A stretch of 64,000 nucleotides of DNA, taken from contig CBDCPC010000002.1 in NCBI GenBank assembly GCA_965220035.1, forward strand, positions 1,021,821 through 1,085,820. Direction: 5' to 3'. Of the stretch, positions 11,783-57,953 are shown piece by piece. Made by a program: the position numbers and the translations under genes. Below the pieces are notes generated by a model, which was not told the DNA's origin, made no database searches, and saw nothing but the letters and a program-made list of their open reading frames with translations. Every line of letters begins with the position of its first letter. The stretch's first letter is position 1. The DNA is from Acidimicrobiales bacterium (lineage in GTDB: Bacteria; Actinomycetota; Acidimicrobiia; Acidimicrobiales; CATQHL01).

Positions 11783-13635
11783 CTAGGTGGCTGGTGTTTT
11801 TCTCGGCGTTTGGGGTGTTGTGGTCTGGTAGAATTACAGGTGTGTGGTTCGGTGTTGTGGGGAGGTTGGTGTTGTGACGGTTGGTGTTGAGCCGTGTCAG
11901 GCTGATTTGTTCAAGGGGACGCGGTTTGTGGGCGAGCGGGTGGGTCCTGGTTCGATTTTTGCGGTGTTGTTCGGTGAGGGTGCCCGGTTGTTTCCCGAGG
12001 GGATGTTCGATGATTTGTTCTCGTCGCGGGGGCGGCGCAGTGTGCCGCCTCGGGTGGTGGCGACGGTGATGGTGTTGCAGCGCTGGTTCGGTTTGTCGGA
12101 CCGTGAGGCGGTGGCGGCGTTCGAGTTCGATGCGCGTTGGCGTTACGCGTGCGGGGGTTTGGACGTCGACGGCGGCGGGTTCTCCCATACGGTGTTGGTG
12201 GGGATGCGGGCCCGGTTGGCGGCGTCGGGTGCGCCGCGGCGGATCTTCGACGCGACCCTCGAGGTGGCGCGCTCGGCGGGGGCGCTGTCTCAGCGGCGGG
12301 TGCTGGACTCCGCGCCGATCTACGACGCGGTCGCGACCCAGGACACCGTCACGATGCTGCGCGCCGCGATCCGCGGCGTGTTCGAGGCCGCGGATCGCGA
12401 TCTGGGGGCCATTGTGCGGGGCGCCGTCGCCGGCGGCGACTATGCGTCGCGGTCCAAGCCGGCGTGCGACTGGGACGACGCGGCGGCGCGGGAGGCCCTC
12501 GTGGCGACCATCGCCGGCGACGCCGTGGCGGTGCTCGAAGCCCTCGAGGGTCGCGCGCTGAGCGTCGAAGTCGCGCAGGGCGGGGAGTTGTTGGCCGCCG
12601 TTGTGGGCCAGGACCTCTGCGAGGACCCCGAGGGGCGCCTGGTGATCGCGCGGCGCGTGGCGCGGGACCGGATCATCTCGGTGGTGGACCGCGACGCCCG
12701 CCACGGCCACAAAACCGCAGCACGAGGCTTCGACGGCTACAAGGGCCACATCGCCACGGACCCCGACTCCGAGCTGATCACCGCCACCGCGGTCACCGCC
12801 GCCAACGCCCCCGACGCCCGACCCGCCCCCGAACTCATCGCCGACCTGCTCACCGCCGACACCGCCGCCGCCGCCGCCGCCGCCGACACCACCACCACCG
12901 ACACCACCACCACCGACACCACCGGCACTGCCGGCGACGCCGGGGAGGTTGTGGAGGACTTCGCGGGCAGGCCCACCGTCTACGGCGACTGCGCCTACGG
13001 CAGCGGCGACTTCCAGAGCCTCCTCGGCGAGCACCGCATCAACTCCAAGTGCCGCACCCAAGCGCCGCAGGCGCCCGCGGGACGCTTCACCAAGGACCGC
13101 TTCAGCGTCGACCTGGCCGCCGCGACGGTCACCTGCCCCGCCGAGGTCACCGTCGCCATCAACTACCGCCCCGACGGCGCCGGCACCGCCCGCTTCGGCG
13201 CCGACTGCGCCGACTGCGAACTCCGCGGCGACTGCACCGACGCCAAAGCCGGCAGAACCATACGCATCGGCGCACACGAAACCGCCCTCGCCGCGTCCCG
13301 AGCGCGCCAACAGAACCCGGCCTGGCGCGACGACTACCGCGCCACCCGCCCCAAAGTCGAACGCAAACTCGCGCACCTCATGCGCCGACACCACGGCGGC
13401 CGCCACGCCCGCGTGCGCGGCCAACCCAAAGTCGACGCCGACTTCAACCTCCTCGCCGCAGCCGCCAACATCGCCCGCCTCGGCGCGCTCGGACTGCACA
13501 CCCGCGCCACCCACTGGGCACTCACCTGAACCCCCACCCACCCCCAACACCCCAACCACACCCGCCGGGAACACATCACCAGTATGAGTGCGAAGAGCCA
13601 CCAGACAACAACCCATTCCACACCAGCCACCTAGG
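11783..13635. mobile_element. IS1182-family (IS5 superfamily) insertion sequence, ~1.85 kb, 15-bp perfect TIRs
   Basis: The left end CTAGGTGGCTGGTGT (11783-11797) matches the reverse complement of the right end ACACCAGCCACCTAG (13621-13635). GT-rich subterminal repeats (GGTGTTG-like) sit at the left, with their complement (CCCACCCACCCCCAACACC) at the right. A single transposase ORF lies inside. The element is intergenic, 20 bp past the stop of the VWA gene. Confidence 0.75.
11844..13529 (+). CDS. IS1182-family DDE transposase
   Basis: 561 aa. The N-terminal InsH-like segment reads (..LSDREAVAAFEFDARWRYACG..) and the DDE region reads (..RDARHGHKTAARGFDGYKGHIATD..). It contains an in-frame low-complexity insert AADTTTTDTTTTDTTGTAGDAG encoded by a 15-bp tandem repeat. 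The precise start (11844 vs 11874 GTG) is uncertain. Confidence 0.8.
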   Translation: MVRCCGEVGVVTVGVEPCQADLFKGTRFVGERVGPGSIFAVLFGEGARLFPEGMFDDLFSSRGRRSVPPRVVATVMVLQRWFGLSDREAVAAFEFDARWRYACGGLDVDGGGFSHTVLVGMRARLAASGAPRRIFDATLEVARSAGALSQRRVLDSAPIYDAVATQDTVTMLRAAIRGVFEAADRDLGAIVRGAVAGGDYASRSKPACDWDDAAAREALVATIAGDAVAVLEALEGRALSVEVAQGGELLAAVVGQDLCEDPEGRLVIARRVARDRIISVVDRDARHGHKTAARGFDGYKGHIATDPDSELITATAVTAANAPDARPAPELIADLLTADTAAAAAAADTTTTDTTTTDTTGTAGDAGEVVEDFAGRPTVYGDCAYGSGDFQSLLGEHRINSKCRTQAPQAPAGRFTKDRFSVDLAAATVTCPAEVTVAINYRPDGAGTARFGADCADCELRGDCTDAKAGRTIRIGAHETALAASRARQQNPAWRDDYRATRPKVERKLAHLMRRHHGGRHARVRGQPKVDADFNLLAAAANIARLGALGLHTRATHWALT

Positions 13636-20619: not shown

Positions 20620-21952
20620 ATGTCCACAAAGACCCCCCCCCGCAGATGCCTTTGAACTGAAACTCACACGGCGCCGCCGCCGGCGGCGGCGCGCCGGTGC
20701 GGCGATCGCGGCCGTCCTGATGGTGACCACCGGCGTCTTCGCGACCACAGCAGCCACCGGTCAGGACACCACGGACAGTTCGGGCGAGGTGCGCATCATC
20801 GCTCGCAAACTCGAGAGCGGGCGCATCGAGTTCGGCCTCCAGCAACGCCAAGCCGACGACACCTGGGGCGCCCGCCAACTCCCCCGCGTCCGCTTCTTCC
20901 CCACCACCGCCCGCACCGGACGCTGGCTCGCCAGCTCCCCCCTCGCATTGACCGCCGGCGAGGTGCGCATCATCGCTCGCAAGCTCGAAAACGGCAAGGT
21001 CGAGTTCGGCCTCCAGCAACGCCAAGCCGATGATTCCTGGAGCGACCGCCAACTGCCCCGGGTCCGCTTCTTCCCCACCACCGCCCGCGTCGGACGCTGG
21101 CTCGCAAGCTCCCCACTCACCCTCACCGCGCCCGGAGCAACCCGCCAATACACCGCCAGCACCGCCGCCGACACCTACACGTGCACACTGAGGGGCGGCG
21201 ACACGCTCACCTGTGTCGGCCAGAGCCTGCTCGCGGACCCCCAAGCGCCCGCCGGTCCGTACACCGCTCTCGCCTCCGGCAACGCCCACGTGTGCGGGCT
21301 ACGCACGGCCGGCACCATCACCTGCTGGGGCGGCAACTGGGAAGGGCAGACCGACGCGCCCGCCGGGCGCTACACCGCCATTAGCGCCGGCAACTACCAC
21401 ACATGCGCGCTGCGCACCGACGGCGCCGTCACCTGCTGGGGCGAGAACAGTGCCGGGCAGACCGAGTCGCCCGCCGGGCAGTACACGGCAATTGCCGCCG
21501 GCGCAGGCCATGCGTGCGGGCTGCGCAACGACGGCGCCGTCACCTGCTGGGGCGATGCGGTCTACGGGGCGACCGACGTGCCCGCCGGGCGCTACACCGC
21601 GATCGCCGGCGGCGTACACGACGTCTGCGGGCTGCGCGCCGATAGCACCATCACCTGCTGGGGCAGCCGCTGGACCGGTAGTGGTGGCATGGACGACATG
21701 GGCGGGCCTCCCGCCGGGCAGTACACCGCCATCAGCACCGGCAACAACCACACGTGCGCGCTGCGCACCGACAGCGGTGTCACGTGTTGGGGCGAAGACT
21801 TCACCGGGGCGACGTGGGTGCCCGCCGGGAGCTACGTTGCAGTCGCCGCCGGCGGCACTCACACGTGCGCACTGCGCACCGACGACACCCTCACGTGCTG
21901 GGGTGACGAGTACGTCGGCGGACCACCACCGGTGGACGCGCCATCCGGGTAG
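20620..21952 (+). CDS. Secreted RCC1-repeat β-propeller protein with two N-terminal ~58-aa repeat domains; apparent frameshift at a C9 tract
   Basis: The body (ORF from ATG 20720) has about 7 RCC1-like blades (..YTAISAGNYHTCALRTDGAVTCWG.. repeated). Upstream ATG 20620 gives MSTKTPP, then a C9 run (20633-41) shifts frame. With one fewer C the reading continues ADAFELKLTRRRRRRRRAGAAIAAVLMVTTGVFATTAATG (a signal-peptide-like N-terminus) in frame with the body. Confidence 0.6.
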
Positions 21953-22123
21953 ACGCCAGGTGGCCGAACGGCTCCTCGTCCCCGGAAGGGACTACGGCGG
22001 GTTGCCGTGGTCGGGGGATTCCTCGCGGTCGTGGGCTGTCACCACCGCCCCGTCGTGGCGGGCGGGCGGTGCACACCCGGCCGCGCCGAACCGCTTCGCG
22101 GCGCACCGAGGTCACCGGCGCCG

Positions 22124-23455
22124 GTGAGGGGTGGCACGGCTCGGCGCCTGCGGACACTTGCAGTGGTCCTGGCCTGCGTGGCCGGTGTCCTCGCCGGGCC
22201 GGCCGCCGTGGCGCAGACCGGCGACGGGTGGCGCATTCTGGCCATGCCTCTCGCGGACGGTCGCGTCGAGGTGGCGTTGCAGCAACGCGACGGCGGCGGC
22301 GAGTGGAGCGAGCGGATCCTGCCCCAGCAGCGGTTCGTGGCCCCGGACACCCCGGTCGGGCGCTGGCAGGCCGGCTTACCGGTCACGATCCGCAGCAGCG
22401 GCGGAGTGCGGGACTTGTGCATCGCGGCGCGCCGCCTCGCCGGCGGGGGCGTGGAGTTGGCATTGCAGCAGCGCCACGGCGGCGGCGAGTGGGGCGAGCG
22501 GATCCTGCCCCAGCAGCGGTTCGTGGCCGCCGACGCCCCGGTTGGGCGCTGGCTGGCGAGTTCTCCGGTCGCCGTCGCGGGACCGGTGACCACCACCGCC
22601 GGCGATCCGCCCGAGGGATCCGCCGGCGGCACTCCCCGCGGCCTGCTCACCCCGACCGGCGTTCCGGTCGCCGTCATCGAGCGGACAGGCTGCGGCTACC
22701 TGGTGCGCGCTCCGTGGGGCGACACCGTCGAGATCGCCACCGGCGAACCCATCGAGGGCGTGCGGGTCGTGATCGACCCGGGTCACGGCGGCCGCTGGGA
22801 GTCCGGCGCGGTCGGCGGCAACGGCCTTGCCGAACGCGACCTGAACCTCACGCTCGGCCGCGCCGTCGTCGCCGAACTCGCCGGTCGCGGCATCGGCGCG
22901 GTGCTGACCCGCACCGGGGACTACGGGACGCCGCTGGCGGTGCGCGCCGCCTTCGCTGACGCGCTGGGAGTCGACGCGCTCATCTCCATCCACCACAACG
23001 CGCCCACGACAACGCTGAGCGACACCCCCGGCACCGAGTTGTACGTCCAATCGACCTCCCCGGGCGCGCCGCGGGCATCCTCGGCGCGCCTCGGAGCCCT
23101 TCTCTACGAGGAGATCACCGCCGCGCTCACCCGCTTCGAAGGCATCCGCTGGTCCCGCCTACCCAACGCCGGCGTCCTGCGAGTGCTGTCCCCCTACGAC
23201 GGCGGCGACGTCTACGGCATGATCCGCCGACCCGCCACCCCCGCCGTCCTCGTCGAGTACGGCTACCTCTCCAACCCCGCCGAGGCCAGGCTGTTCGCCA
23301 CCGACGCATACATCCGCGCAGCCGCCACCGCCACCGCCGACGCCGTCGAGGCCTACCTCCACAGCGACCGCCAAGGCACCGGACACATCCACCGCCCACG
23401 CGTCTTCGACCCGGCCACGCCACCCTTCAGCTACGACGAGTTCCCACTCGAATAG
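22124..23455 (+). CDS. N-acetylmuramoyl-L-alanine amidase (Amidase_3) with signal peptide and two N-terminal ~58-aa repeat domains
   Basis: A GTG start gives RRLRTLAVVLACVAGVLAGPAAVAQT (signal peptide). The amidase_3 core reads ..VVIDPGHGGRWESGAVG..DLNLTLGRAV.. ..DALISIHHNA.. The N-terminal repeats (..GRVEVALQQRDGGGEWSERILPQQRFVAPDTPVGRWQAG..) are homologous to the repeats in the adjacent RCC1 protein. Confidence 0.8.
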   Translation: MRGGTARRLRTLAVVLACVAGVLAGPAAVAQTGDGWRILAMPLADGRVEVALQQRDGGGEWSERILPQQRFVAPDTPVGRWQAGLPVTIRSSGGVRDLCIAARRLAGGGVELALQQRHGGGEWGERILPQQRFVAADAPVGRWLASSPVAVAGPVTTTAGDPPEGSAGGTPRGLLTPTGVPVAVIERTGCGYLVRAPWGDTVEIATGEPIEGVRVVIDPGHGGRWESGAVGGNGLAERDLNLTLGRAVVAELAGRGIGAVLTRTGDYGTPLAVRAAFADALGVDALISIHHNAPTTTLSDTPGTELYVQSTSPGAPRASSARLGALLYEEITAALTRFEGIRWSRLPNAGVLRVLSPYDGGDVYGMIRRPATPAVLVEYGYLSNPAEARLFATDAYIRAAATATADAVEAYLHSDRQGTGHIHRPRVFDPATPPFSYDEFPLE

Positions 23456-23650
23456 CCGCCGCGGCAGTGCATCCTGGTCGCCGGAGCGGGTCCGGGGCCG
23501 TGCCTGATTCCAGCCTCCACCGTCCCGGGCCGTGGGGCCGCGCCTCGGGGTGGGTCATGCGGATCGGACGCAACCTGGTTCCAGTTGCCACCGTCGCGGT
23601 ACGGCCGGCTGGACGGGGCGGCGGAGTTCCGGCGGCAGCGCTCCGAGGCC

Positions 23651-23955
23651 ACTGTCACACCCCCCTCGTAACATCACAAACATGGCAGCGGAAGCACCCC
23701 ACGGGTCCGGATCCCGGCCCGCCTGCCCGGCAATCCCCAACCCCACCGCCGGCACGACCCGCACCCGCCGAACCGCCCCCGGAACACTGTCACACCCCCC
23801 TCGTAACATCACCGTCATGGAGCAGGTAGTGCCCGAAGGACCGGATCAGCGACCGGCGACGCCGACAGCGCCGGAGGGTGTCGCCGCCGGGATGCGCGCC
23901 GGGAGTGACGCTCGGAGAACGCTGTCACACCCCCTTCGTAGCATCACCGTCATGG
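23651..23955 (+). promoter_or_regulatory. Triplicated 34-bp motif CTGTCACACCCCCCTCGTAACATCAC(N3)CATGG at ~135-bp spacing
   Basis: Copies at 23651-85, 23786-820 and 23922-55 are nearly identical; the third has one fewer C. Each contains TAACAT (or TAGCAT) 7 nt before an ATG that is in frame with the DUF222 ORF. This is the geometry of leaderless mycobacterial-type promoters. Confidence 0.5.
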
Positions 23956-25418
23956 AACGCGCGGACATGCACGAAGCGGCACCGGTGTCGACGATCGATG
24001 CGGGTTACTTGGGCTCCGGGCAGGCCTCAGGAGGTGTCATGGCCGAGCGCGGTACTGGCCGCGGCAACGAGGATCGCAGGGGTCCGGACCTCCCACTGGG
24101 AGCGTTGGCGGTCCTGGGGAGCAACGCGGATGCCCTCGATGCGGAGGGCCTGGGCGGGTTCCTGGCGGCAGTGCGAGCGGTGCGGTCGTGGGTGGACGCG
24201 CGGGAGGCCGCGGCGCTGGCGGTGGCAACTCGCCGCGGTGTTGCCGCAGCGGCGGGCGCGGCGGACACGGCGGCCTGGTTGAGCGGGCACACCGGTGTCG
24301 GCCGCCGGGAGGCGCTGGCGCGAACGCGCACCGCGTCAGGTCTGGAGGACCTGCCCGAGGTGGCTGAGGCTCTCGCCGATGGGCGCATCACCCGCGGGCA
24401 CGTGCAGGCGCTGGCGACCTATGCGGCTCCCGATGGCGTGGACCTGAGTGTCGATCCGGACTTGGACTTCCCCGATGCGGCGCGTGAGGCGGCCCGCCGG
24501 GTGGCCCTGGCGGTGCGCGGGCGGCAGGAGAAGTTGATCGCCGCCGCGGAGGCCATGAGCGTCGACGCCTTCCGGCGGTTCCTGCGCCGCTGGGCGGACC
24601 GCGCCGCGGGCGACGATGGCGCCGGGCGGGACGTGGCGCAGCGACGGCGGCGCAGCGTCACCACATTCACCACCGACGACGGCCTGTGCGGCGTGCGCGG
24701 CCTGCTACCACCCGATCAGTTCGCGTTCTTCGAGAACGAACTGCGGCGCCTGGCCGAGGCCCGCTGGCGTGCCGACCACCCCGACGCCGACAACGTGCCC
24801 GCCAAGGAGCTGACCTGCCCCCAGCGCAACGCCGACGCCCTGGTGGACATGGCGCGCCGCAGCCGCCAACTCGGCGACAACGCCGACGAACCGCTCGGCT
24901 CACACGTCGACGTGATGGTCCTCATCGACCACGAGACCCTCACCGGGGGCTTCCACGACGACACTCGTTGCGAACTCGACGACACGACGCCCCTGTCGCC
25001 GGCGGCGGCGCGACGCCTGCTGTGCGACGCCGATGTCCTCACCGCCATCCGTCACCGCAAGCCCTTCAAGCTCGACCTGGGCTACAGCCGGCGGGCCGCC
25101 AACCGCAAGATCCGCAGAGCCCTCATCGCCCGCGACCGCACCTGCACCGCTCCCGGATGTGAGCGGCCCCACTGGATGTGCGAGATCCACCACATCGTGC
25201 CCTGGGTCGAAGGGGGACGCACCGACCTGGACAACCTCACTCTCCTCTGCAGCCGCCATCACCACATCCACCACGCCAACGAGGCACGGAAGATCGAGGG
25301 GGCACGCCGAGCCGACGGCAACCGCACGACAACCGACACAACCGATCCCCCACCCGACCGAAGTCCCGCCCGCGACGGGCCGGACCGCTCGATTGGCATT
25401 GAGCCCTGCGCACACTGA
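23952..25418 (+). CDS. DUF222 domain protein with C-terminal HNH endonuclease (REP13E12-type)
   Basis: The N-terminal DUF222-like region reads (..LGALAVLGSNADALDAEGLGGFLAAVRAVRSWVDAREAAALAV..). The C-terminal HNH motif reads (..RTCTAPGCERPHWMCEIHHIVPWVEGGRTDLDNLTLLCSRHHHIHH). The start was taken at the ATG of the third repeat unit; the maximal ORF begins at 23532. Confidence 0.8.
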   Translation: MERADMHEAAPVSTIDAGYLGSGQASGGVMAERGTGRGNEDRRGPDLPLGALAVLGSNADALDAEGLGGFLAAVRAVRSWVDAREAAALAVATRRGVAAAAGAADTAAWLSGHTGVGRREALARTRTASGLEDLPEVAEALADGRITRGHVQALATYAAPDGVDLSVDPDLDFPDAAREAARRVALAVRGRQEKLIAAAEAMSVDAFRRFLRRWADRAAGDDGAGRDVAQRRRRSVTTFTTDDGLCGVRGLLPPDQFAFFENELRRLAEARWRADHPDADNVPAKELTCPQRNADALVDMARRSRQLGDNADEPLGSHVDVMVLIDHETLTGGFHDDTRCELDDTTPLSPAAARRLLCDADVLTAIRHRKPFKLDLGYSRRAANRKIRRALIARDRTCTAPGCERPHWMCEIHHIVPWVEGGRTDLDNLTLLCSRHHHIHHANEARKIEGARRADGNRTTTDTTDPPPDRSPARDGPDRSIGIEPCAH

Positions 25419-25596
25419 CAACCGAAGAGGGCTCCGGTGCGACCCTCGAGCCGGCCCGAACGGCAGCCGAGGACCTCCGGGCGACCCCGAGGTCAGCCTT
25501 GCCGCCGTGGGCGAGTTGGGGCAACGGCAGGCGCGGCGGCGCGGTCCGAGCGACCCCGACGTCAGCGACCGGGACATCGGCGCCCTCGACGTCAGC

Positions 25597-25722
25597 AGCC
25601 CCGACATCAGAGTCGAGCGCTTGGGGGCGGGATCCGGGCGGCGGCGAGCGCTACGGCACAGTCCAAGCAGCCCCGACATCAGAGTCGAGCGCCGGCGGGC
25701 GGGATCCGGGCGGCGGCGAGCG
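25597..25722. repeat. ~54-bp tandem direct repeat (period ~72 bp) spanning the 3' end of ppx and the adjacent intergenic region
   Basis: AGCCCCGACATCAGAGTCGAGCGC(N6)GGCGGGATCCGGGCGGCGGCGAGCG occurs twice (25597-25650 and 25669-25722). Shorter CCCCGACGTCAGC-like repeats lie upstream. Confidence 0.5.
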
Positions 25723-27292
25723 GATCCCCGGGGCTCGGGGTCTCGGCAAGCACGCGGACCGGCAGCCCGGTGGCGGCGGCCAGCAACTCGCTGCGCTGGT
25801 TGGCCGTGTACAACTCCACCGAGGCGTCGGCGCCGGGCGAGGTACCGCAGGCGATGACGAGCGCCTCGCCCGCCCTCGCCGTCACATTACGCACCGCCCC
25901 GCTGCGCGTGCGATCGAGGGCGATGGCGATCCGCAGGATCCCTGCCAGCAGCTGCACCCGGGCGCGATCGGCGACGTTCAGCGCGGCGAACTCGGGATGG
26001 TCCGTCCGCGGCAGGGCCTTGCGCTGGTAGCGGGCCACCAGGGCGATCAACTCCACCTCGCGCTCGGTGAACCCCAGCAGCCGGTCGCTGCTGCGGATCA
26101 CGTAGTAGCTGTGCTTGTGGTGAGCGCCGCGCGAGATGTAGCGACCCACGTTGTGCAACATTCCGGCGGCCTCGAGCAGGTCCCTCTCGTAGAGGCCGAA
26201 GCGGTGGATGTCGGCCAGCGCGTCGAAGAGTTGCAGCGCCAGGTCGGCCACCTGCTGGACGTGCGGCCGCTCCTCCTCGTAGTCCTCCGCGATGCGCAGC
26301 ACCGACTCCCGCCTGATGTCACTGAGATGCCAAAAGGCGTCGCCACCTCCACCGGCGTGGACGCCGTCCAGCAGAACGCCCTCGCGCAGGGCGTAGCCGG
26401 AGACGGTGATCGCCGGTATCCCGAAGCACTCGAACACGCCCTCCAGCAGGAGGGCGCCCGCCACGATCACGTCGGCCCGCCGCTCGTCCAGACCGCCGAG
26501 GGATCGGCGCGCCTCCGGCATCGGCGCCGCGATCACGGCATCGGTGACCTCGGCCAGTTCGGCGCGGGTGAACGAGACGTTGTTGACCCAGCGGTCCCCG
26601 GGGCCATTGCGCCGGTGCTCGGCCATCTGGGCGATGGTAGCGATCGTCCCGGAACTGCCCACCGCCAGCTCGTAGCCCAGCGGACTCAGGTCATGACCCA
26701 CCGGGGCCAGGAACGACCGCACGTAGGCACGGCATTCCCTCACGGCGGTCGCATCGGCCACCCCGCCGGGGAAGAAGCGCTCCGTGAGGCGGACGTGCCC
26801 GAGCTTCACGCTGCGCGCCGCCAGCGGCCTGTCCCCCCACCCGATGAGCAGTTCGGTGCTGCCGCCGCCGATGTCGACCAGAAGGATGCGCCGGTCGTAG
26901 ACGGAGAGGGCCTGCACCACACCGAGGTGGATCAGCCGCGCCTCCTCGGTTCCCGACACGACCTCGACGTCGATGCCCGCCTCCGCAGCGGCACGGTCGA
27001 GGAACTCGCGGCGATTCTCGGCCTCGCGGACGGCGCTCGTCGCCACGGCCCGCACGGTTGCGCCGAAGGAGGCGGCGGTCTTGACGAGCCCGCGCAGCGC
27101 ACCGATCCCACGGTCGATGGCCTCCGCCTGCAACAGGCGCATGTCGCCCGACCCGGATCCCAGACGCACCACCTCCTTGTCCCGGCAGAGGATCTCGAGG
27201 CCGCCGGTCTCGCTGACCCTGGCGACCACGAGGTGGAACGAGTTGGTTCCGACGTCGATAGCGGCATGGACCTCGCCGGCCGCACCATTCAC
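25679..27292 (-). CDS. Ppx/GppA family exopolyphosphatase with C-terminal HD domain
   Basis: ..AAIDVGTNSFHLVVARV.. (ASKHA phosphatase N-terminus), then ..LLVDIGGGSTEL.., and a C-terminal HD region (..MLHNVGRYISRGAHHKHSYY..). The start was placed at GTG ~27292 (VNGAAGEVHAAIDVG); the ORF maximum 27760 is implausible. Confidence 0.75.
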   Translation of the reverse strand: MNGAAGEVHAAIDVGTNSFHLVVARVSETGGLEILCRDKEVVRLGSGSGDMRLLQAEAIDRGIGALRGLVKTAASFGATVRAVATSAVREAENRREFLDRAAAEAGIDVEVVSGTEEARLIHLGVVQALSVYDRRILLVDIGGGSTELLIGWGDRPLAARSVKLGHVRLTERFFPGGVADATAVRECRAYVRSFLAPVGHDLSPLGYELAVGSSGTIATIAQMAEHRRNGPGDRWVNNVSFTRAELAEVTDAVIAAPMPEARRSLGGLDERRADVIVAGALLLEGVFECFGIPAITVSGYALREGVLLDGVHAGGGGDAFWHLSDIRRESVLRIAEDYEEERPHVQQVADLALQLFDALADIHRFGLYERDLLEAAGMLHNVGRYISRGAHHKHSYYVIRSSDRLLGFTEREVELIALVARYQRKALPRTDHPEFAALNVADRARVQLLAGILRIAIALDRTRSGAVRNVTARAGEALVIACGTSPGADASVELYTANQRSELLAAATGLPVRVLAETPSPGDPLAAARIPPAGARL

Positions 27293-51607: not shown

Positions 51608-54600
51608 TCAGCTGCAGCCGCTGGTGACGCCGCACGTTGCGCACGCATAGCACGACCCGGCTCGCACCATGCGCGTCCCGCACGACATGCACAGCGGCGA
51701 GGCGGAGTCCGTCAGGCCGCCATGGAATCTGTCGCGAGCGGGCTCGCCTGCCGTCGGAGCATCGGATCGGCGCAACACCGAAGGCGGGTCCGGAGCGACG
51801 TCGATCCCCTGCGCTGCGCCGACGGCCGCCTCGGCGACGCCGGGAAGCGTGGGCTCGAGCCGCTCGGAGGTTGCGAAGATGCTCATCTCGGCCCGTTCCT
51901 CCGGCGACAGGTACGTCAGCGCCAGCCGCCGGAACAGGTAGTCCATGAGGCTGGTCGCGATCCGAATGTCGGGATCGTCGGTCACACCGGCCGGCTCGAA
52001 GCGCATCCCGCAATAGGCGTCCACGTAGGCGCGCAGCGGGACGCCGTACTGCAGCCCGTGCGACACCGCGACCGCGAAGGCGTCCATGATTCCGGCCAGG
52101 GTGGAACCCTGCTTGGAGACCCGCACGAAGATCTCCCCGGGCCGACCGTCGTCGTATTGGCCGACGGTCACGAATCCCTTGCAATCGGCCACCCGGAATT
52201 CCATGGTGCGCGAAGCGCGGTGGCGAGGCAGCCGGCGACGCACCGGCTCGGAAGCGGGTGGCGCGACGTCCGCTGCCGAGGAGCCGGCGGTCTCGGCGGC
52301 GCCACCCGCCGCCGCGAGCGGTTGCTGCCACTTCGAATTGTCGCGGTAGACGGCGAGGGCCTTGACGCCGCTTCGCCAGGCCGACACGAACAGATCGCGC
52401 ACCTCGGCGACGGTGGCGTCGGCACCCAGGTTGACCGTCTTCGAGATGCCCCCGCTCAGGAAGGGCTGCACCGCCGCCATCATCTGCACGTGGCCGTCGG
52501 GGCTCACGGTGTTGTCACCGATGGAGCAGGCAAACACCGGGTAGTGCTCGCGCGCCAGGCCGGGAGCACCCAGAATCGAGCCATGACGCTCCACGTGCGC
52601 CACGATCCCGGGGATCTCGGCGGCGCCGTAGCCCAACCGCTCCAGGGCCGCCGGCAGCGAGCGGTTCACGAGCACCATCGAGCCCCCTCCGACCAGGGAT
52701 TTCGACTTGCGCAGGGCCAGGTCGGGCTCAATGCCCGTGGTATCGCAATCCATCATGAAGCTGATGGTGTTGTGCGATACGAAACCGTTGGCCACGTAGG
52801 TGACGTTGTCGGGAACGGACAAGTCATAGGTCCACTGCTCCTCGCCCAAACCGGCGCAACTGACCCGGTCGTAGAAGTAACCGAGCAGCCGGGCCAGTTC
52901 ATCATCACCAGTGCCCTGCAGCAGCTCCAAGGCCGATCGGCGCGACACCATGCCGTTTCGGGCCAGGGATTGCAGCATGGTGCGCCGCAAGCGGCCGTTC
53001 TCCGGCGCGAGTCGGTCGACAACGGAGCGGGGCACCGGAATGTGGTCGCGGCGTGCTGCCTGGGCGGTGGCCACCGAGACCAGGGCAGCCTGCTTGCGGC
53101 TGCTCATGAAACCGATTTCCTCGGCAAACTCCGTCGAGTACGACAGATTGAGGAGGCGTAGTACGGCCAGCCGCGAGCCACCCCAGCCGGTCCGATCAAT
53201 TTTTCGAGTCGTGGGATAGCCGATCGCCAGTAACAACGACTGCACGTCGCGGCTGAACTCGATCGAGGTGATCGACCAATGCGGATAGCCACCTCCCACT
53301 GTTCCATCGGCCTCGAAGAGTCCTCTGACGAAGGCCCGGTAAGTCTCAGGGCAATTTGTGGCAAGAACCGCATCGGGGATGTGAGGCCGCCATCCCTTTC
53401 CAGCATGGCCGTCTACGGGAGGCGTCTTGGCGAAACCGCATGCTTCCCACCACACGGTCAGCGGAACCGAGTGAAATGCCAGTTCGAGATAGCCGGCTTT
53501 TTCGGTGACGTGGGTCTCGAGATTGAAGAGTGCCTTCCCGAGCAGTCGAAGCCGCTCCACCACGTCGATGTCCCCAGCCGTCACGCAAAGGCGTAGACCC
53601 TTGGCATGCAGGGAACCATCTCCCATGAAGTATCCGACGAACTCGGCCAACTCCGGGCTCATAGCTCTTGGAGCCGTGGTGGTCCAATCACCTGTCCAGT
53701 ACATCTCTCCCAAGGAGGGCAGGGTCACGCTGCGGGAACCTCCCACCAACTGGTTCAGCTGCAGGGGCACGAGATCACCGGCTTCGATGTCTCTGAAGCG
53801 TTTCCATACCCAGTCGCCGGTCAGCGGATCGACAACCTTGATGCGATGGGTGGGCGTTCCTTCGATGCGGTAGCCACGGTGCGTGTCCACGGTCACCACC
53901 CGCTCCGCGCCGTTGACATAGAACTGCGTCGCGGTACGGGGTCCCTCGTCTGTTCCAGCTGAGACGCCAAGAGCCTGCCACCGGGCGCCTTGGGGATCGC
54001 CGAGCGACCGAAGTCGGATCAGTCCTCGCTCGGTGGGGATGAGAGAGCCACCCACCAGACATCCAGTGGGCGCCAGCACCGTGGCCTGGGCGTTGCGCAC
54101 GCCGGAGGCCGACGCTTGCTCACACGCCTCGTCCCACGACTCCCGGGCGGCGGCAACGAGCGCCGCGGGCGCCTGGCCGGAGTCGATGCCGGTCACAGCT
54201 CGGCGGTGCATGTCCAGGACGCGGAGCACGTCGTCGCGGTTGGCCGCGTACTGCTCGAATGGCCCCATGCGCGCCGCGATGTGTGCGGACGTGCGGTAGG
54301 CCTCGCCGCACATAACCGCAGTCACGGCGGCCGCCGTCGCCCGCCCGGCATCGGAGTCGTACGGCAGACCCATGGTCATCAGCAGACCGCCGAGGTTGGC
54401 GTAGCCCAGGCCGAGCTGACGGAAGGCGACGGCGTTGCGGCCGATCGCAGGCGTTGGATAGTGGGACCGTCCCACCAGGATCTCCTGCGCGCAGAACACC
54501 ACGCGGACCGCCGCCCGGACGCCCGCCACGTCGAACTGCCCGTCGGCGCCGAGGAACGCCAGCAGGTTCAGGCTGGCCAGGTTGCAGGCCGAGTTGTCGA

Positions 54601-55675
54601 GGTGGAGGTACTCCGAGCAGGGGTTGGAAGCCGTGATGCGGCCGGCCGCGGGCGTGGTGTGCCACCGGTTGATGGTCGTATCGAACTGCACCCCTGGATC
54701 GGCGCACTCCCATGCCGCCTCGGCGACCTGGCCGAGCAGACCGGCGGCATCGACCGTCTCGACGACCTCTCCGGTGGTGCGCGCCGTGAGATCCCATTGG
54801 CGTCCCGCCAGCGCTGCCTCCATGAACTCGTCGGTGACACGAACGGAGTTGTTGGCGTTCTGGTACAGCAGCGAGGTGCTGTCGACACCGTCGAAGCTGA
54901 GGTCGAACCCGGACTCACTGAGGACACGCGCCTTGCGCTCCTCACGGGCCTTGCACCAGACGAACTCGGCGATGTCGGGATGATCGGCGTCGAGCACGAC
55001 CATCTTGGCGGCACGCCGCGTCGTGCCTCCCGAGCGAATGGCCCCGGCCGAGGCGTCGGCACCCCGCATGAAGCTCACCGGCCCGCTTGGCCGGCCGCCA
55101 CCGGAGAGAAACTCCGAAGCCGAGCGGATGCGACTCAGGTTGACACCGGCACCCGACCCGCGCTTGAAGATCATCCCCTCCTCCGTGTACCAGTTCAGGA
55201 TCGACTCCATGGAGTCCTCCACCGCCAGGATGAAGCAGGCGGAGGACTGCGGCAGGGCGCCCGGAACCCCGATGTTGAACCACACCGGCGAGTTGAACGA
55301 CGCCTTCTGGGTGACGAGGAGATGCGTGAGCTCATCGGTGAACGCCGTCGCCTCATCCGCGCCGGCGAAATAACCGCCCTCGGCACCCCAGCGGCTGATC
55401 GTGCCGGCGACCCGGTCGATCACCTGACGGAGGGAACTCTCGCGATCGGTACTGCCGAGCCGGCCGCGGAAGTACTTCTGGGAGACGATGTTGACGGCGT
55501 TCTGCGACCACGAGGTCGGGAACTCCACGCCGTCCTGCTCGAAGACGACGTCGCCGCCGGTATCGGTGATGAGCGCACGCCGCCGGCTCCATTCCACCGT
55601 GTCGAACGGATGCACATCCTCGAGGGTGAAGAAGCGCTGGAGACCGATGCGGGTCTGCTCGGACAGGACGGTCAC
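51608..55675 (-). CDS. nrdJ: Class II (adenosylcobalamin-dependent) ribonucleotide reductase NrdJ, interrupted by an in-frame intein
   Basis: 1355 aa. It has the class II RNR N-terminus MTVLSEQTRIGLQRFFTLEDVHPFDTVEW.. and the catalytic Cys loop. The C-terminus carries a CxxC..CxxC cluster. An intein lies between APTG and TISFMMDCDTTGIEP. Confidence 0.9.
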   Translation of the reverse strand: MTVLSEQTRIGLQRFFTLEDVHPFDTVEWSRRRALITDTGGDVVFEQDGVEFPTSWSQNAVNIVSQKYFRGRLGSTDRESSLRQVIDRVAGTISRWGAEGGYFAGADEATAFTDELTHLLVTQKASFNSPVWFNIGVPGALPQSSACFILAVEDSMESILNWYTEEGMIFKRGSGAGVNLSRIRSASEFLSGGGRPSGPVSFMRGADASAGAIRSGGTTRRAAKMVVLDADHPDIAEFVWCKAREERKARVLSESGFDLSFDGVDSTSLLYQNANNSVRVTDEFMEAALAGRQWDLTARTTGEVVETVDAAGLLGQVAEAAWECADPGVQFDTTINRWHTTPAAGRITASNPCSEYLHLDNSACNLASLNLLAFLGADGQFDVAGVRAAVRVVFCAQEILVGRSHYPTPAIGRNAVAFRQLGLGYANLGGLLMTMGLPYDSDAGRATAAAVTAVMCGEAYRTSAHIAARMGPFEQYAANRDDVLRVLDMHRRAVTGIDSGQAPAALVAAARESWDEACEQASASGVRNAQATVLAPTGCLVGGSLIPTERGLIRLRSLGDPQGARWQALGVSAGTDEGPRTATQFYVNGAERVVTVDTHRGYRIEGTPTHRIKVVDPLTGDWVWKRFRDIEAGDLVPLQLNQLVGGSRSVTLPSLGEMYWTGDWTTTAPRAMSPELAEFVGYFMGDGSLHAKGLRLCVTAGDIDVVERLRLLGKALFNLETHVTEKAGYLELAFHSVPLTVWWEACGFAKTPPVDGHAGKGWRPHIPDAVLATNCPETYRAFVRGLFEADGTVGGGYPHWSITSIEFSRDVQSLLLAIGYPTTRKIDRTGWGGSRLAVLRLLNLSYSTEFAEEIGFMSSRKQAALVSVATAQAARRDHIPVPRSVVDRLAPENGRLRRTMLQSLARNGMVSRRSALELLQGTGDDELARLLGYFYDRVSCAGLGEEQWTYDLSVPDNVTYVANGFVSHNTISFMMDCDTTGIEPDLALRKSKSLVGGGSMVLVNRSLPAALERLGYGAAEIPGIVAHVERHGSILGAPGLAREHYPVFACSIGDNTVSPDGHVQMMAAVQPFLSGGISKTVNLGADATVAEVRDLFVSAWRSGVKALAVYRDNSKWQQPLAAAGGAAETAGSSAADVAPPASEPVRRRLPRHRASRTMEFRVADCKGFVTVGQYDDGRPGEIFVRVSKQGSTLAGIMDAFAVAVSHGLQYGVPLRAYVDAYCGMRFEPAGVTDDPDIRIATSLMDYLFRRLALTYLSPEERAEMSIFATSERLEPTLPGVAEAAVGAAQGIDVAPDPPSVLRRSDAPTAGEPARDRFHGGLTDSASPLCMSCGTRMVRAGSCYACATCGVTSGCS
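52769..54061 (-). other. Intein (431 aa) with LAGLIDADG homing-endonuclease domain inside nrdJ
   Basis: The extein junction is ..VLAPTG|CLVGGSLIPT.....YVANGFVSHN|TISFMM.. There is a Cys1 and a terminal HN followed by Thr+1. The LAGLIDADG-like blocks read FVGYFMGDGSL and AFVRGLFEADGTV. Confidence 0.85.
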
Positions 55676-55987: not shown

Positions 55988-56752
55988 ATGGTCGCAATGC
56001 AACAGGTCTGGCCACGATTCCGCCCGGCGGTCGATCACCTCGAGGTGTACGGGCAAGCGAGGCGCCTCCAGTCGCGCGACAGGCCCTGGGTGATGATGTG
56101 CATGATCACCACCGTGGACGGCTCCGTGAGCGTGAAGGGCCGCTCGGGCCCGCTGGGAGGGCCCACGGACTGGGCGGTGCTCAGCGCCTTGCGCGGTTGC
56201 GCCGATGCCATCGTGGTGGGTGCCGGAACCGCCCGCACCGAGGACTACGGCCCTCCCTCGCTGGAGGCGCAGGTCCGGGAACGTCGCCTGGCACGGGGTC
56301 AGGAGGCCCTGCCGCTGCTGGCCGTGGTGAGTGCACGCGGCGCGCTGGACCCGGCGGCCCGCCTGTTCGGCGGTCCGGAGCCGCCGCGGCTGTACCTCGC
56401 AGCGGCAGCACCGCCGGAGCGACGGGCAGCTCTGGCGACGGTTGCCGAGGTGCGCACGGCCGGTGGAGCGACGGTCGAGGCCGAAGAGGTCGTAGCCGAC
56501 CTCGCCGCCGAGGGCCGGACCCTCATCCTGCTGGAGGGCGGACCTCAACTCAACGCCTCCTTCGCGAGCGCCGACCTCATCGACGAGTTCTGCATCACAC
56601 GGTCGCCGCTCCTGGCGCCGGGTGGCCCGGGCCTCATCGAGGGCGACCCGCTGCCGGCGGCGCACGACCTTCGCCTGGATCGCCTGCTTGTTGCCGACGG
56701 CATGATCTTCGCCCGCTATCTGCGGCAGCGACAGCCTCACGAATCTGCCTGA
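55988..56752 (+). CDS. RibD C-terminal domain (DHFR-like) pyrimidine reductase family protein
   Basis: 254 aa from ATG 55988: ..WVMMCMITTVDGSVSVKGRSGPLGGPTDWAVLSALRGCADAIVVGAGTARTE.. ..LILLEGGPQLNASFASADLIDEFCITRSP.. The maximal ORF (53990..) is antisense to nrdJ and is rejected. Confidence 0.7.
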   Translation: MVAMQQVWPRFRPAVDHLEVYGQARRLQSRDRPWVMMCMITTVDGSVSVKGRSGPLGGPTDWAVLSALRGCADAIVVGAGTARTEDYGPPSLEAQVRERRLARGQEALPLLAVVSARGALDPAARLFGGPEPPRLYLAAAAPPERRAALATVAEVRTAGGATVEAEEVVADLAAEGRTLILLEGGPQLNASFASADLIDEFCITRSPLLAPGGPGLIEGDPLPAAHDLRLDRLLVADGMIFARYLRQRQPHESA

Positions 56753-56997
56753 GGTCCATCGACCACCGGGACGGGCGCGGTCCCGACGGCCGGAGCAACC
56801 AGATGCGCTCCGACGAACTCGCCCAATCGGAAGACGCCCCAGAGCGATGCCCAGAGGAGGAAGCCCAGCACCGCCAGAACCATGGCGCGCCGCCACAGGT
56901 AGATCCGCGCCGGACGGCGCCGCGCGGCGTCGAATCGGACTCCGCCGGCCGCGGCGCGGGGACCGGCCGGCGTCGCAAGTATTGCTGAGGACTCCAT
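56737..56997 (-). CDS. Possible small membrane protein (hypothetical)
   Basis: ATG 56997, 86 aa, with one clear TM helix (..AMVLAVLGFLLWASLWGVF..). It is convergent with ribD_C and overlaps it by 16 bp. There is no homology basis for it. Confidence 0.2.
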   Translation of the reverse strand: MESSAILATPAGPRAAAGGVRFDAARRRPARIYLWRRAMVLAVLGFLLWASLWGVFRLGEFVGAHLVAPAVGTAPVPVVDGPQADS

Positions 56998-57068
56998 GTC
57001 CTCCAGGATTCCCCGGGGGTGTGACACAGCCCTCGATGTCCCGAGGGTGACTCGATCCGAGGAGGATC

Positions 57069-57269: not shown

Positions 57270-57953
57270 ATGAGCAGCGAAACCACGGCTTACACGACCG
57301 AGGACACCGAGCCGCAGCCCACGGCCGTGGCCAAACTTTCCGAACGCCGGCAGGCGATCATCCATTTCGTGGCCGAGTACACCCGCGAGCGCGGCTACCC
57401 GCCGTCGGTGCGCGAGATTTGCAAGGCCGTGGGGCTCATCTCGCCGGCCTCGGTCCAGCGCCACCTGGTCATCCTCGAGCAGCAGGGTTTCCTGCGACGT
57501 GACCCCAGCAAGCCCCGAGCCCTCGAGGTGCACTACGACCCGGTTTCGGGCCACGCCGTGGATCGCCACCCGGTGAGCTACGTGCCCCTCGTGGGTGACG
57601 TGGCGGCCGGTTCGGGCGTCCTGGCGCAAGAGAACATCGAGGAGGCCCTGCCGCTGCCGACGGCGTTCGTCGGCCACCAGGACGCCTTCGTGCTCCGTGT
57701 GCGTGGCGACTCGATGACCGGCGACGGCATCTTCGACGGCGATCTGCTGGTGGTCCGGATGCAGCACCTCGCCGGCGAGGGCGACATCGTCGTGGCCGGC
57801 CTGCCGGGCGACGAGGCCGCCGTGAAGCGGTTCCACCGCGAGGGCGACGAGGTGGTGCTGGTGTCCTCGAACGCCGACTACCCGCCCCGGCGCTATCCGG
57901 CGAAGGACCTGCGCATCTACGGCCGGGCCATCACCGTCCTGCGCACCCTCTGA
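57270..57953 (+). CDS. lexA: LexA repressor
   Basis: N-terminal winged HTH, ..VAAGSGVLAQE.. (Ala-Gly cleavage site), and an S24 peptidase Ser/Lys dyad (..RVRGDSMTGDGI.. ..AVKRF..). An AAGGAAGG RBS lies upstream. Confidence 0.9.
   Translation: MSSETTAYTTEDTEPQPTAVAKLSERRQAIIHFVAEYTRERGYPPSVREICKAVGLISPASVQRHLVILEQQGFLRRDPSKPRALEVHYDPVSGHAVDRHPVSYVPLVGDVAAGSGVLAQENIEEALPLPTAFVGHQDAFVLRVRGDSMTGDGIFDGDLLVVRMQHLAGEGDIVVAGLPGDEAAVKRFHREGDEVVLVSSNADYPPRRYPAKDLRIYGRAITVLRTL

Follow-up and report, generated by a model that had tools for sequence, protein, structure and literature searches.

In-frame tandem copies of a probable leaderless promoter-and-start module, resembling PafBC-type promoters, upstream of a DUF222-HNH nuclease gene in an Acidimicrobiales bacterium

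In a 64,000-nt stretch of an Acidimicrobiales genome (contig CBDCPC010000002.1; the whole stretch is referred to as the window), the 5' end of a gene encoding a DUF222-HNH endonuclease of the 13E12 type carries three near-identical copies of a short cassette, which we read, with moderate confidence, as an array of activator-dependent, probably DNA-damage-inducible, leaderless promoter-plus-start modules of the PafBC type. The cassette is conserved throughout the close family of this gene, keeps the gene's reading frame, varies in copy number between orthologs, and recurs in front of other genes. According to the proposed mechanism, each cassette would by itself supply both the promoter and the start codon of a leaderless mRNA, with a -26-type activator element, TGTCACACCCC, and a -10 hexamer TANNNT but no -35 element, and the ATG located 7 nt past the hexamer would serve both as transcription start and as start codon. 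The three starts would yield three transcripts, each translated from its own 5' end, and the resulting proteins of 578, 533, and 488 aa would have the entire nuclease in common, with differences confined to a disordered N-terminal tail. DNA damage would most likely be the activating condition, and a PafBC-type WYL activator would sense it. The array presumably arose by duplication of a unit consisting of the cassette and the first ~45 codons and would grow and shrink by recombination between cassettes, with selection preserving the cassettes and the in-frame units rather than the peptide sequence. Since the peptide sequence appears not to be selected, the likely benefit would be promoter dosage or inducibility rather than distinct isoforms. 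Promoter activity, leaderless initiation, control by DNA damage, the nature of the activator, and a role in dosage are all predicted here from comparison of sequences.

The cassette has the consensus CTGTCACACCCCC[C/T]TCGTA[A/G]CATCAC-N3-CATGG, and its three copies, all on the + strand, start at positions 23652, 23787, and 23922, i.e., the spacing is exactly 135 and 135 bp, which corrects the 135-136 bp given in the original prediction. The near-identity of the copies claimed there holds: the core CTGTCACACCCCCCTCGTAACATCAC is matched without mismatches at 23652-23677 and 23787-23812 and with two mismatches at 23922-23947, and no further match with up to three mismatches was found within the window or in 100 shuffled sequences. 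Each copy has the form TGTCAC-N10-TANNNT-N7-ATG. Cassette 1 (23652..23684) comprises TGTCACACCCC at 23653-23663, the hexamer TAACAT at 23669-23674, and the ATG at 23682-23684, which begins the longest predicted isoform (578 aa). The corresponding elements of cassette 2 (23787..23819) are located at 23788-23798, 23804-23809 (TAACAT), and 23817-23819 (533-aa isoform), and those of cassette 3 (23922..23954) at 23923-23933, 23939-23944 (TAGCAT), and 23952-23954 (488-aa isoform). The gap between hexamer and ATG, previously put at about 7 nt, is exactly 7 nt in all three copies, and the three ATGs are indeed in the frame of the DUF222-HNH open reading frame (ORF) ending at 25418; a start codon 7 nt past the hexamer leaves no room for a leader. 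The identical triple arrangement is present in an independently assembled 13.9-kb metagenome contig (L002).

Both inter-cassette units (23685..23786 and 23820..23921, + strand) are open in the gene's frame. The first encodes an unconserved Pro/Ala/Thr/Gly-rich peptide, and its GC content is higher at second than at first codon positions, which is atypical of coding composition. The original prediction considered the inter-motif DNA to be unconserved and the array to be no simple tandem duplication. It is true that only the cassette is near-identical, but the stretches following copies 1 and 2 are 50% identical in an ungapped comparison, against 30 +/- 5% for random segments of the region, which points to an old tandem duplication whose copies have since diverged except in the nearly identical cassette. 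Tandem Repeats Finder did not detect the 135-bp period, and the array is no head-to-tail repeat alike over its whole length, as in variable-number tandem repeats, the units being 35-50% identical outside the cassette.

The family-wide comparison covered 18 distinct close-family loci with 33 cassettes. Ten of these loci (L005-L014) are contigs of Acidimicrobiales metagenome-assembled genomes (MAGs), one of them titled only 'bacterium', and the other eight are the window and ENA/Logan contigs. The cassette was observed upstream of the gene in all 18 loci. Eight loci (L001, L007-L012, and L056) have one copy, and the remaining ten have two (L004, L005, L013, L014, L053, and L055), three (the window, L003, and L052), or four (L006). 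Conservation across cassettes covers TGTCACACCCC, a pyrimidine-rich CYYCG, and the first, second, and last bases of the hexamer (T, A, and T); its three inner positions (the hexamer elsewhere reads TAGTGT, TAATGT, or TATATT) and the 7-nt spacer are free to vary. The distance from hexamer to start codon is exactly 7 nt in 33 of 33 cassettes, and the start codons are ATG or GTG only, which is the arrangement of actinobacterial leaderless genes (TANNNT 6-8 nt upstream of ATG or GTG, too close for a Shine-Dalgarno sequence to fit in). At the single-copy loci the cassette forms a sharp island, the only conserved one in otherwise unalignable upstream DNA. Scanning with a position-weight matrix of 22 columns built from the cassettes revealed no decayed copies between 12 and 25 bits.

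All 15 inter-cassette distances (135, 135; 132, 135; 138; 117; 135, 132, 81; 108; 222; 135, 180; 201; 204), ranging from 81 to 222 bp, are multiples of three, as are the length differences between orthologous arrays (132, 135, 117, 180; 201 vs 204). The gene's frame contains no stop codon in any of the 15 inter-cassette segments, while frame +1 is interrupted in 7 of them. On these comparative grounds (constant 7-nt gaps, distances divisible by three, no in-frame stop), the earlier idea of a leaderless-promoter-like cassette with nested in-frame starts is supported. All cassette start codons open into the full-length ORF except in the frameshifted L013 and L014. In the latter two loci, both on CAXXMX010000010.1 and each carrying two cassettes, the ORF breaks off after 124-292 codons, although 70-73% identity to the query is retained along the entire length; this reflects either pseudogenization or indel errors of long-read sequencing.

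The frame is preserved, and the encoded peptide is not. The ratio of nonsynonymous to synonymous substitution rates (dN/dS) is 1.3 and 0.98 for the inter-cassette peptides (55 and 31 codons) vs 0.15-0.28 for the protein core, and T-A-NNN-T is kept while the encoded residues change, e.g., LSHPPRNIT vs LSHPFHILV. Since the residues differ widely on a fixed DNA skeleton, the constraint acts on the DNA and not on the peptide, and selection thus appears to keep the frame open irrespective of the peptide sequence. An open frame with a neutral peptide is the pattern expected if transcripts from upstream cassettes are translated from their 5' ends through to the nuclease domain, and it would be unexpected if the tails had functions of their own. 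As for the N-terminal isoforms suggested by the original prediction, they are probably made, yet their sequences are neutral (dN/dS about 1), and distinct functions are unlikely. The same data bear on the notion that the cassette is a conserved peptide repeat (LSHPPRN-type) of a longer N-terminal domain translated from further upstream. The window ORF is open from 23532, i.e., 5' of all three cassettes, so that all of them are translatable; however, first or single cassettes are equally conserved where the upstream frame is closed (e.g., in L006), and, given the conservation at the DNA level and the unit dN/dS of about 1, we rejected the peptide-repeat reading as extremely improbable.

Another explanation, to which we assign a low probability, is that only the gene-proximal cassette or a start preceded by a Shine-Dalgarno sequence is functional, the upstream copies being relics of duplication without a role. 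A candidate for such a start lies at 24029..24041 (+ strand), where AGGAGG (24029-24034) is followed after 4 nt by ATG 24039; the public gene call (P0001, 459 aa) begins there, and this possible additional start could provide leadered translation of all three transcripts. It is not conserved in L001. The explanation also agrees with the single copy in the ortholog L001, with the neutrality of the extension peptides, and with the weak coding composition upstream of ~24057. On the other hand, the upstream copies are as conserved as the proximal ones (25-38 bits), no array contains a decayed copy, and identity is still 92-100% in the 26-nt core but only 35-50% in the drifted unit DNA. Moreover, all 15 intervals retain frame and openness, neither of which would be required of neutral relics.

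Copy number differs between syntenic orthologs. The window gene has three cassettes and its L001 ortholog (91% protein identity, same upstream amidase gene) has one; the upstream flank of this single cassette is 93% identical to that of cassette 1 in the window, and its downstream DNA corresponds to that following cassette 3. The methyltransferase-linked orthologs L003, L005, L006, and L052 possess three, two, four, and three copies, respectively. At unconstrained positions, copies within one array are more alike than copies across loci, and in L053 the first unit has been homogenized toward the second, both of which suggest recombination or gene conversion between cassettes.

The original prediction did not recognize what the upstream half of the cassette represents: TGTCAC-N10-TANNNT is the bipartite skeleton of PafBC-dependent (RecA-NDp) promoters. 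For mycobacteria, the PafBC motif determined in vivo has been published as tGTCgg(N10)tA(N3)T; its 5' part occupies -23 to -28, PafB reads the GTC in this -26 element, a normal SigA -10 element follows, and a -35 element is missing (PMC8635444). TGTCAC-10N-TA-3N-T is an accepted variant in M. tuberculosis (PMC8151990). In the window, TGTCR-N11-TANNNT matches the three cassettes only, and so does TGTC-N12-TANNNT (0.37 matches expected). The latter pattern, with its invariant GTC and fixed spacing, also holds for each of the 33 family cassettes. A -35 consensus is absent, as the eight columns 5' of TGTC carry at most 1.1 bits and the upstream DNA of single-copy loci is unalignable; a two-hexamer sigma-70 scan of the region likewise yielded no -35/-10 promoter.

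Other regulatory elements fit the cassette less well. A LexA operator at the cassettes was rejected: the SOS box CGAAC-N4-GTTCG at up to two mismatches has 59 matches in the window vs 45 +/- 7 in shuffled sequences, and none of the 59 lies within 22524-25986. An RNA element was also rejected, since Rfam gave no relevant match in 22500-26500. The extracytoplasmic function (ECF) sigma factor pattern GGAAC-N16-CGT was discarded, with GGAAC preceding some internal copies only and the respective columns being of low information, as was a SiwR-type site, which is a palindrome with a GGA triplet and unlike the cassette.

It is possible, though rather unlikely, that the architecture is as described and that a factor other than PafBC reads TGTCACACCCC, for instance another WYL/HTH activator or a lineage-specific sigma adaptor, in which case the signal might be something other than DNA damage. 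The element, conserved over 11 nt, departs from TGTCGGTG after GTCR, other WYL activators such as SiwR likewise act at -26, no PafBC is encoded by the window ORFs scanned, and the element recurs in phage contigs with a GC content of 51-73%. Nevertheless, the GTC triplet and its N10 distance to TANNNT are exactly those of PafBC, TGTCAC is accepted in M. tuberculosis, and the SiwR palindrome does not resemble TGTCACACCCC. Further, the set of genes preceded by the element, which includes the 13E12 family and a gene divergent from lexA, parallels the mycobacterial PafBC/RecA_NDp set.

A comparison with distant DUF222-HNH genes (28-32% identity) from Aeromicrobium and three uncultured-Actinomycetota MAGs supports the PafBC-type assignment. 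In M. tuberculosis, 13E12 (DUF222-HNH) genes are induced by DNA damage and carry RecA_NDp and/or LexA sites (PMC3381160). The distant genes are preceded by TGTCGGTG, TGTCGGAG, or TGTCCGAG, followed by N8, TAGATT, and the SOS box TCGAACATACGTTC or a close variant. In L025, L031, L037, L038, L040, and L047, a near-identical upstream block, GGAC(A/T)GTGTC(G/C)G(T/A)G-N8-TAGATT, precedes TCGAACATACGTTC or a close variant. By its motifs, this block of Aeromicrobium and the uncultured Actinomycetota appears to be a PafBC-type promoter overlapped by a LexA operator and conserved across genera. The canonical or near-canonical motif in front of these distant genes suggests that a PafBC-type promoter before this gene family is the rule across the phylum, of which the Acidimicrobiales form would be a variant without a LexA box.

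The element is not confined to the nuclease gene. A fourth exact TGTCACACCCC occurs in the window at 57026..57016 on the - strand, followed by N10, the hexamer AATCCT (57010..57005), 7 nt, and an ATG (56997..56995). This ATG begins an 86-aa ORF (56737..56997, - strand) divergent from lexA (57270..57953, + strand; LexA_DNA_bind and Peptidase_S24 domains), the presence of which indicates that the genome has an SOS repressor. By eye, the 86-aa sequence contains one hydrophobic stretch resembling a membrane helix. Homologs of this ORF (60-91% identity) adjoin lexA in all six loci recovered (L058-L063), and L058 and L060-L062 retain GTGTCACACCCC, an nAnnCT hexamer, and the ATG amid diverging flanks. 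The ORF is a candidate for damage-inducible expression from a promoter of this class. In other Gram-positive bacteria, yneA and divS are SOS genes divergent from lexA. The M. tuberculosis gene in this position is Rv2719c, which is driven mainly by RecA_NDp (PMC3381160). The 86-aa ORF occupies the same position relative to lexA and shares the promoter element of the HNH gene, but it has neither a LysM domain nor a detectable sequence relationship; by analogy with Rv2719c, yneA, and divS, its product may be a damage-induced inhibitor of cell division.

In two relatives, L005 (929-957) and L006 (794-823), a cassette with a GTG start and a gap of 6 or 7 nt precedes N6_N4 DNA-methyltransferase genes, and such a gene is located just 5' of the DUF222-HNH gene in one orthologous group. 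L003 also has the methyltransferase gene, with no cassette scoring at least 12 bits there. Cassettes and methyltransferase genes also have conserved bases just past the start codon, RTG-(G/C)A(A/G)-C(G/A)A-AC, encoding M-E/Q/N-R/Q/H-T, which may reflect a constraint imposed by leaderless translation or by the sequence transcribed first. Viral contigs from IMG/VR (L064-L092, 51-73% GC) contain 29 matches to TGTCACACCCC-N5-TANNNT-N7-RTG, a count near chance by a rough estimate. Among these matches, 22 of 29 open ORFs of at least 60 aa, and groups of related phages keep the 11-mer and the hexamer while the spacer varies (e.g., L065 position 5781, - strand; L075 position 9869, + strand; L064 position 2316, + strand). 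Phages may use this host promoter class. Some of the phage ORFs behind the element look like RecB/Cas4-type exonucleases. With occurrences at the lexA-divergent ORF in the window, at methyltransferase genes in the relatives L005 and L006, and at all family paralogs, the element may be a feature of a regulon rather than a repeat specific to DUF222-HNH genes; the window does not contain recA, uvr, or imuB/dnaE2.

This distribution also bears on the proposal that the repeat is an operator or recognition array, a mobile-element end, or a recombination site, i.e., that it is bound by a TGTCACA/GTAACA repressor, is the target of the HNH nuclease itself, or serves as an att site. We regard this as very unlikely. 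TGTCACA is near-palindromic, the family is multi-copy within genomes, and the 13E12 elements of M. tuberculosis were described as insertion elements with phage attachment sites (PMC3381160). However, the second half-site envisaged by the original prediction, GTAACA, merely covers the variable inside of the -10 hexamer, of which only T, A, and T are kept, and the orientation of the element and its 7-nt gap to the start codon are fixed in all 33 cassettes. Besides, the element precedes unrelated genes. Paralogs in different contexts have no flanks in common and show no homology 5' of the cassette by blastn, their similarity being limited to the stretch that begins ~160-290 nt past the last cassette and ends with the HNH domain. 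Hence, the cassette does not form the edge of a longer mobile repeat, and the mobile-element boundary reading was rejected on these homology limits. Nor did blastn reveal a repeat like that of REP13E12 (~1.4 kb, reaching beyond the gene, with a phage attB): no long repeat or attachment site was seen, with no search aimed at attB, and the suggested link to prophage attachment accordingly received no support within that scope.

Several observations count against an array of PafBC-type leaderless modules. The bases following GTC are ACAC and a conserved run of C, not GG and then TG, in disagreement with the mycobacterial consensus. In the published PafBC consensus the bases past GTC are given in lower case (at most 50% conservation), and the ACAC, as judged from the motif, weakens membership in the PafBC class rather than excludes it. 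Still, the extended conservation past GTC is unexplained by published PafBC contacts, which makes another activator possible. At the lexA-divergent copy the hexamer is AATCCT and not TANNNT. No WYL or HTH_11 protein was found by Pfam among the 42 ORFs of the window. A literature search for PafBC in Acidimicrobiia returned nothing, the PafBC literature consulted covering the class Actinomycetes, and the organism is known from metagenome assemblies only. Finally, ATG 24039, the start in the public gene call, has a strong AGGAGG in front of it, so that translation may be partly or wholly leadered, and the extension regions combine weak coding composition with a dN/dS of about 1 over 31-55 codons.

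Compared with the mycobacterial PafBC (RecA-NDp/P1) promoters, the cassettes share the GTC -26 element, TANNNT at N10, the lack of a -35 element, the fixed orientation, and the location before DUF222-HNH genes and a lexA-divergent gene, but they have TGTCACACCCC instead of TGTCGGTG, belong to Acidimicrobiales, are fused to a start codon at 7 nt, and form in-frame arrays of up to four. As in actinobacterial leaderless genes, for which PMC8635444 lists Cortes et al. 2013, TANNNT is located a few nucleotides 5' of ATG or GTG, here the predicted 5' end of the transcript, and a Shine-Dalgarno sequence is absent; several nested starts in one frame at ~135-bp intervals, each with its own activator site, are the difference. 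Leaderless mRNAs beginning with ATG or GTG are translated efficiently. REP13E12 of M. tuberculosis similarly combines DUF222 with HNH, multiple copies per genome, and a link to the DNA-damage response, whereas the homology of the paralogs studied here is limited to the coding core and the cassette, and no LexA box adjoins the latter. Tandem promoters such as rrn P1/P2 also act serially on one gene; here the modules would be near-identical and activator-dependent, each with its own in-frame start codon, and their number varies between orthologs. Thus, the general kind is already known, RecA-NDp promoters at 13E12 genes having been described, while we found no prior description of the Acidimicrobiales form of the element, of the fixed fusion of promoter and start codon, or of in-frame tandem arrays of such modules with variable copy number.

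The gene itself (23682..25418, + strand) has an uninterrupted reading frame between the ATG of the first cassette and the stop codon and encodes DUF222 followed by HNH (PF02720 at 9.3e-22 and PF01844 at 3.6e-8), as is characteristic of the 13E12 family; the core dN/dS relative to L001 is 0.17. About 55 close relatives (58-100% identity) were obtained by the protein search, including at least three paralogs in the source genome (2.37-Mb contig), and in one of these (P0049) a duplicated cassette is visible in the protein sequence. In the scan of species-representative genomes, the close family was restricted to Acidimicrobiales MAGs, apart from one MAG titled 'bacterium', and the metagenome protein scan contributed only two loci. 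The strict pattern TGTCACNCCCCNNNCGTANCATCAC had no match in the contigs of species-representative genomes, the pattern being overly strict and the source species apparently not being a GTDB representative.

Genes for an RCC1-repeat protein and for an Amidase_3 protein are located at 20720-23455 (+ strand), 5' of the array, and the N-terminal half of the latter protein contains an internal duplicated segment (…LALQQR.GGGEW.ERILPQQRFVA.D.PVGRW…). The intergenic region between the HNH gene and ppx (25476-25722) has a 57-nt direct repeat (25594-25650 and 25666-25722; 95% identical, 72-bp period) as well as several 15-nt GCGACCCCGACGTCAGC-like repeats. Elsewhere in the window, a DDE transposase gene of the insertion-sequence type (DUF772 and DDE_Tnp_1_6; 11844-13529, + strand) is flanked by a response-regulator/ANTAR gene and a VWA/AAA pair, and the gene for a class II (B12-dependent) ribonucleotide reductase (51608-55675, - strand) contains an intein with a LAGLIDADG homing-endonuclease domain; the 921-924-aa ribonucleotide reductases of the related contigs L058 and L060 apparently have no intein.

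A more far-reaching interpretation, which we offer only tentatively and regard as somewhat doubtful, is that the arrays are a copy-number-variable expression dial, in which recombination would add or remove in-frame units of promoter, start codon, and disposable tail and would thereby set the damage-inducible dose of a potentially toxic HNH nuclease between strains. The extended TGTCACACCCC would then mark a sigma adaptation of Acidimicrobiales and actinophages and would possibly be recognized by a PafBC relative of altered specificity, which phages would exploit too. If the favored reading of the cassettes as PafBC-type leaderless modules is true, LexA-independent damage promoters of this type would extend to a deep uncultured class of actinobacteria, with a distinct, longer -26 element usable for regulon prediction in MAGs. 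The arrays would document an unusual architecture, complete activator-dependent leaderless modules repeated in frame, and the retention of the frame but not of the peptide would be direct comparative evidence for actual translation from leaderless starts. Gene starts in the family would also be corrected, as the public calls begin at varying downstream codons and would hide both the promoters and the true N-termini.

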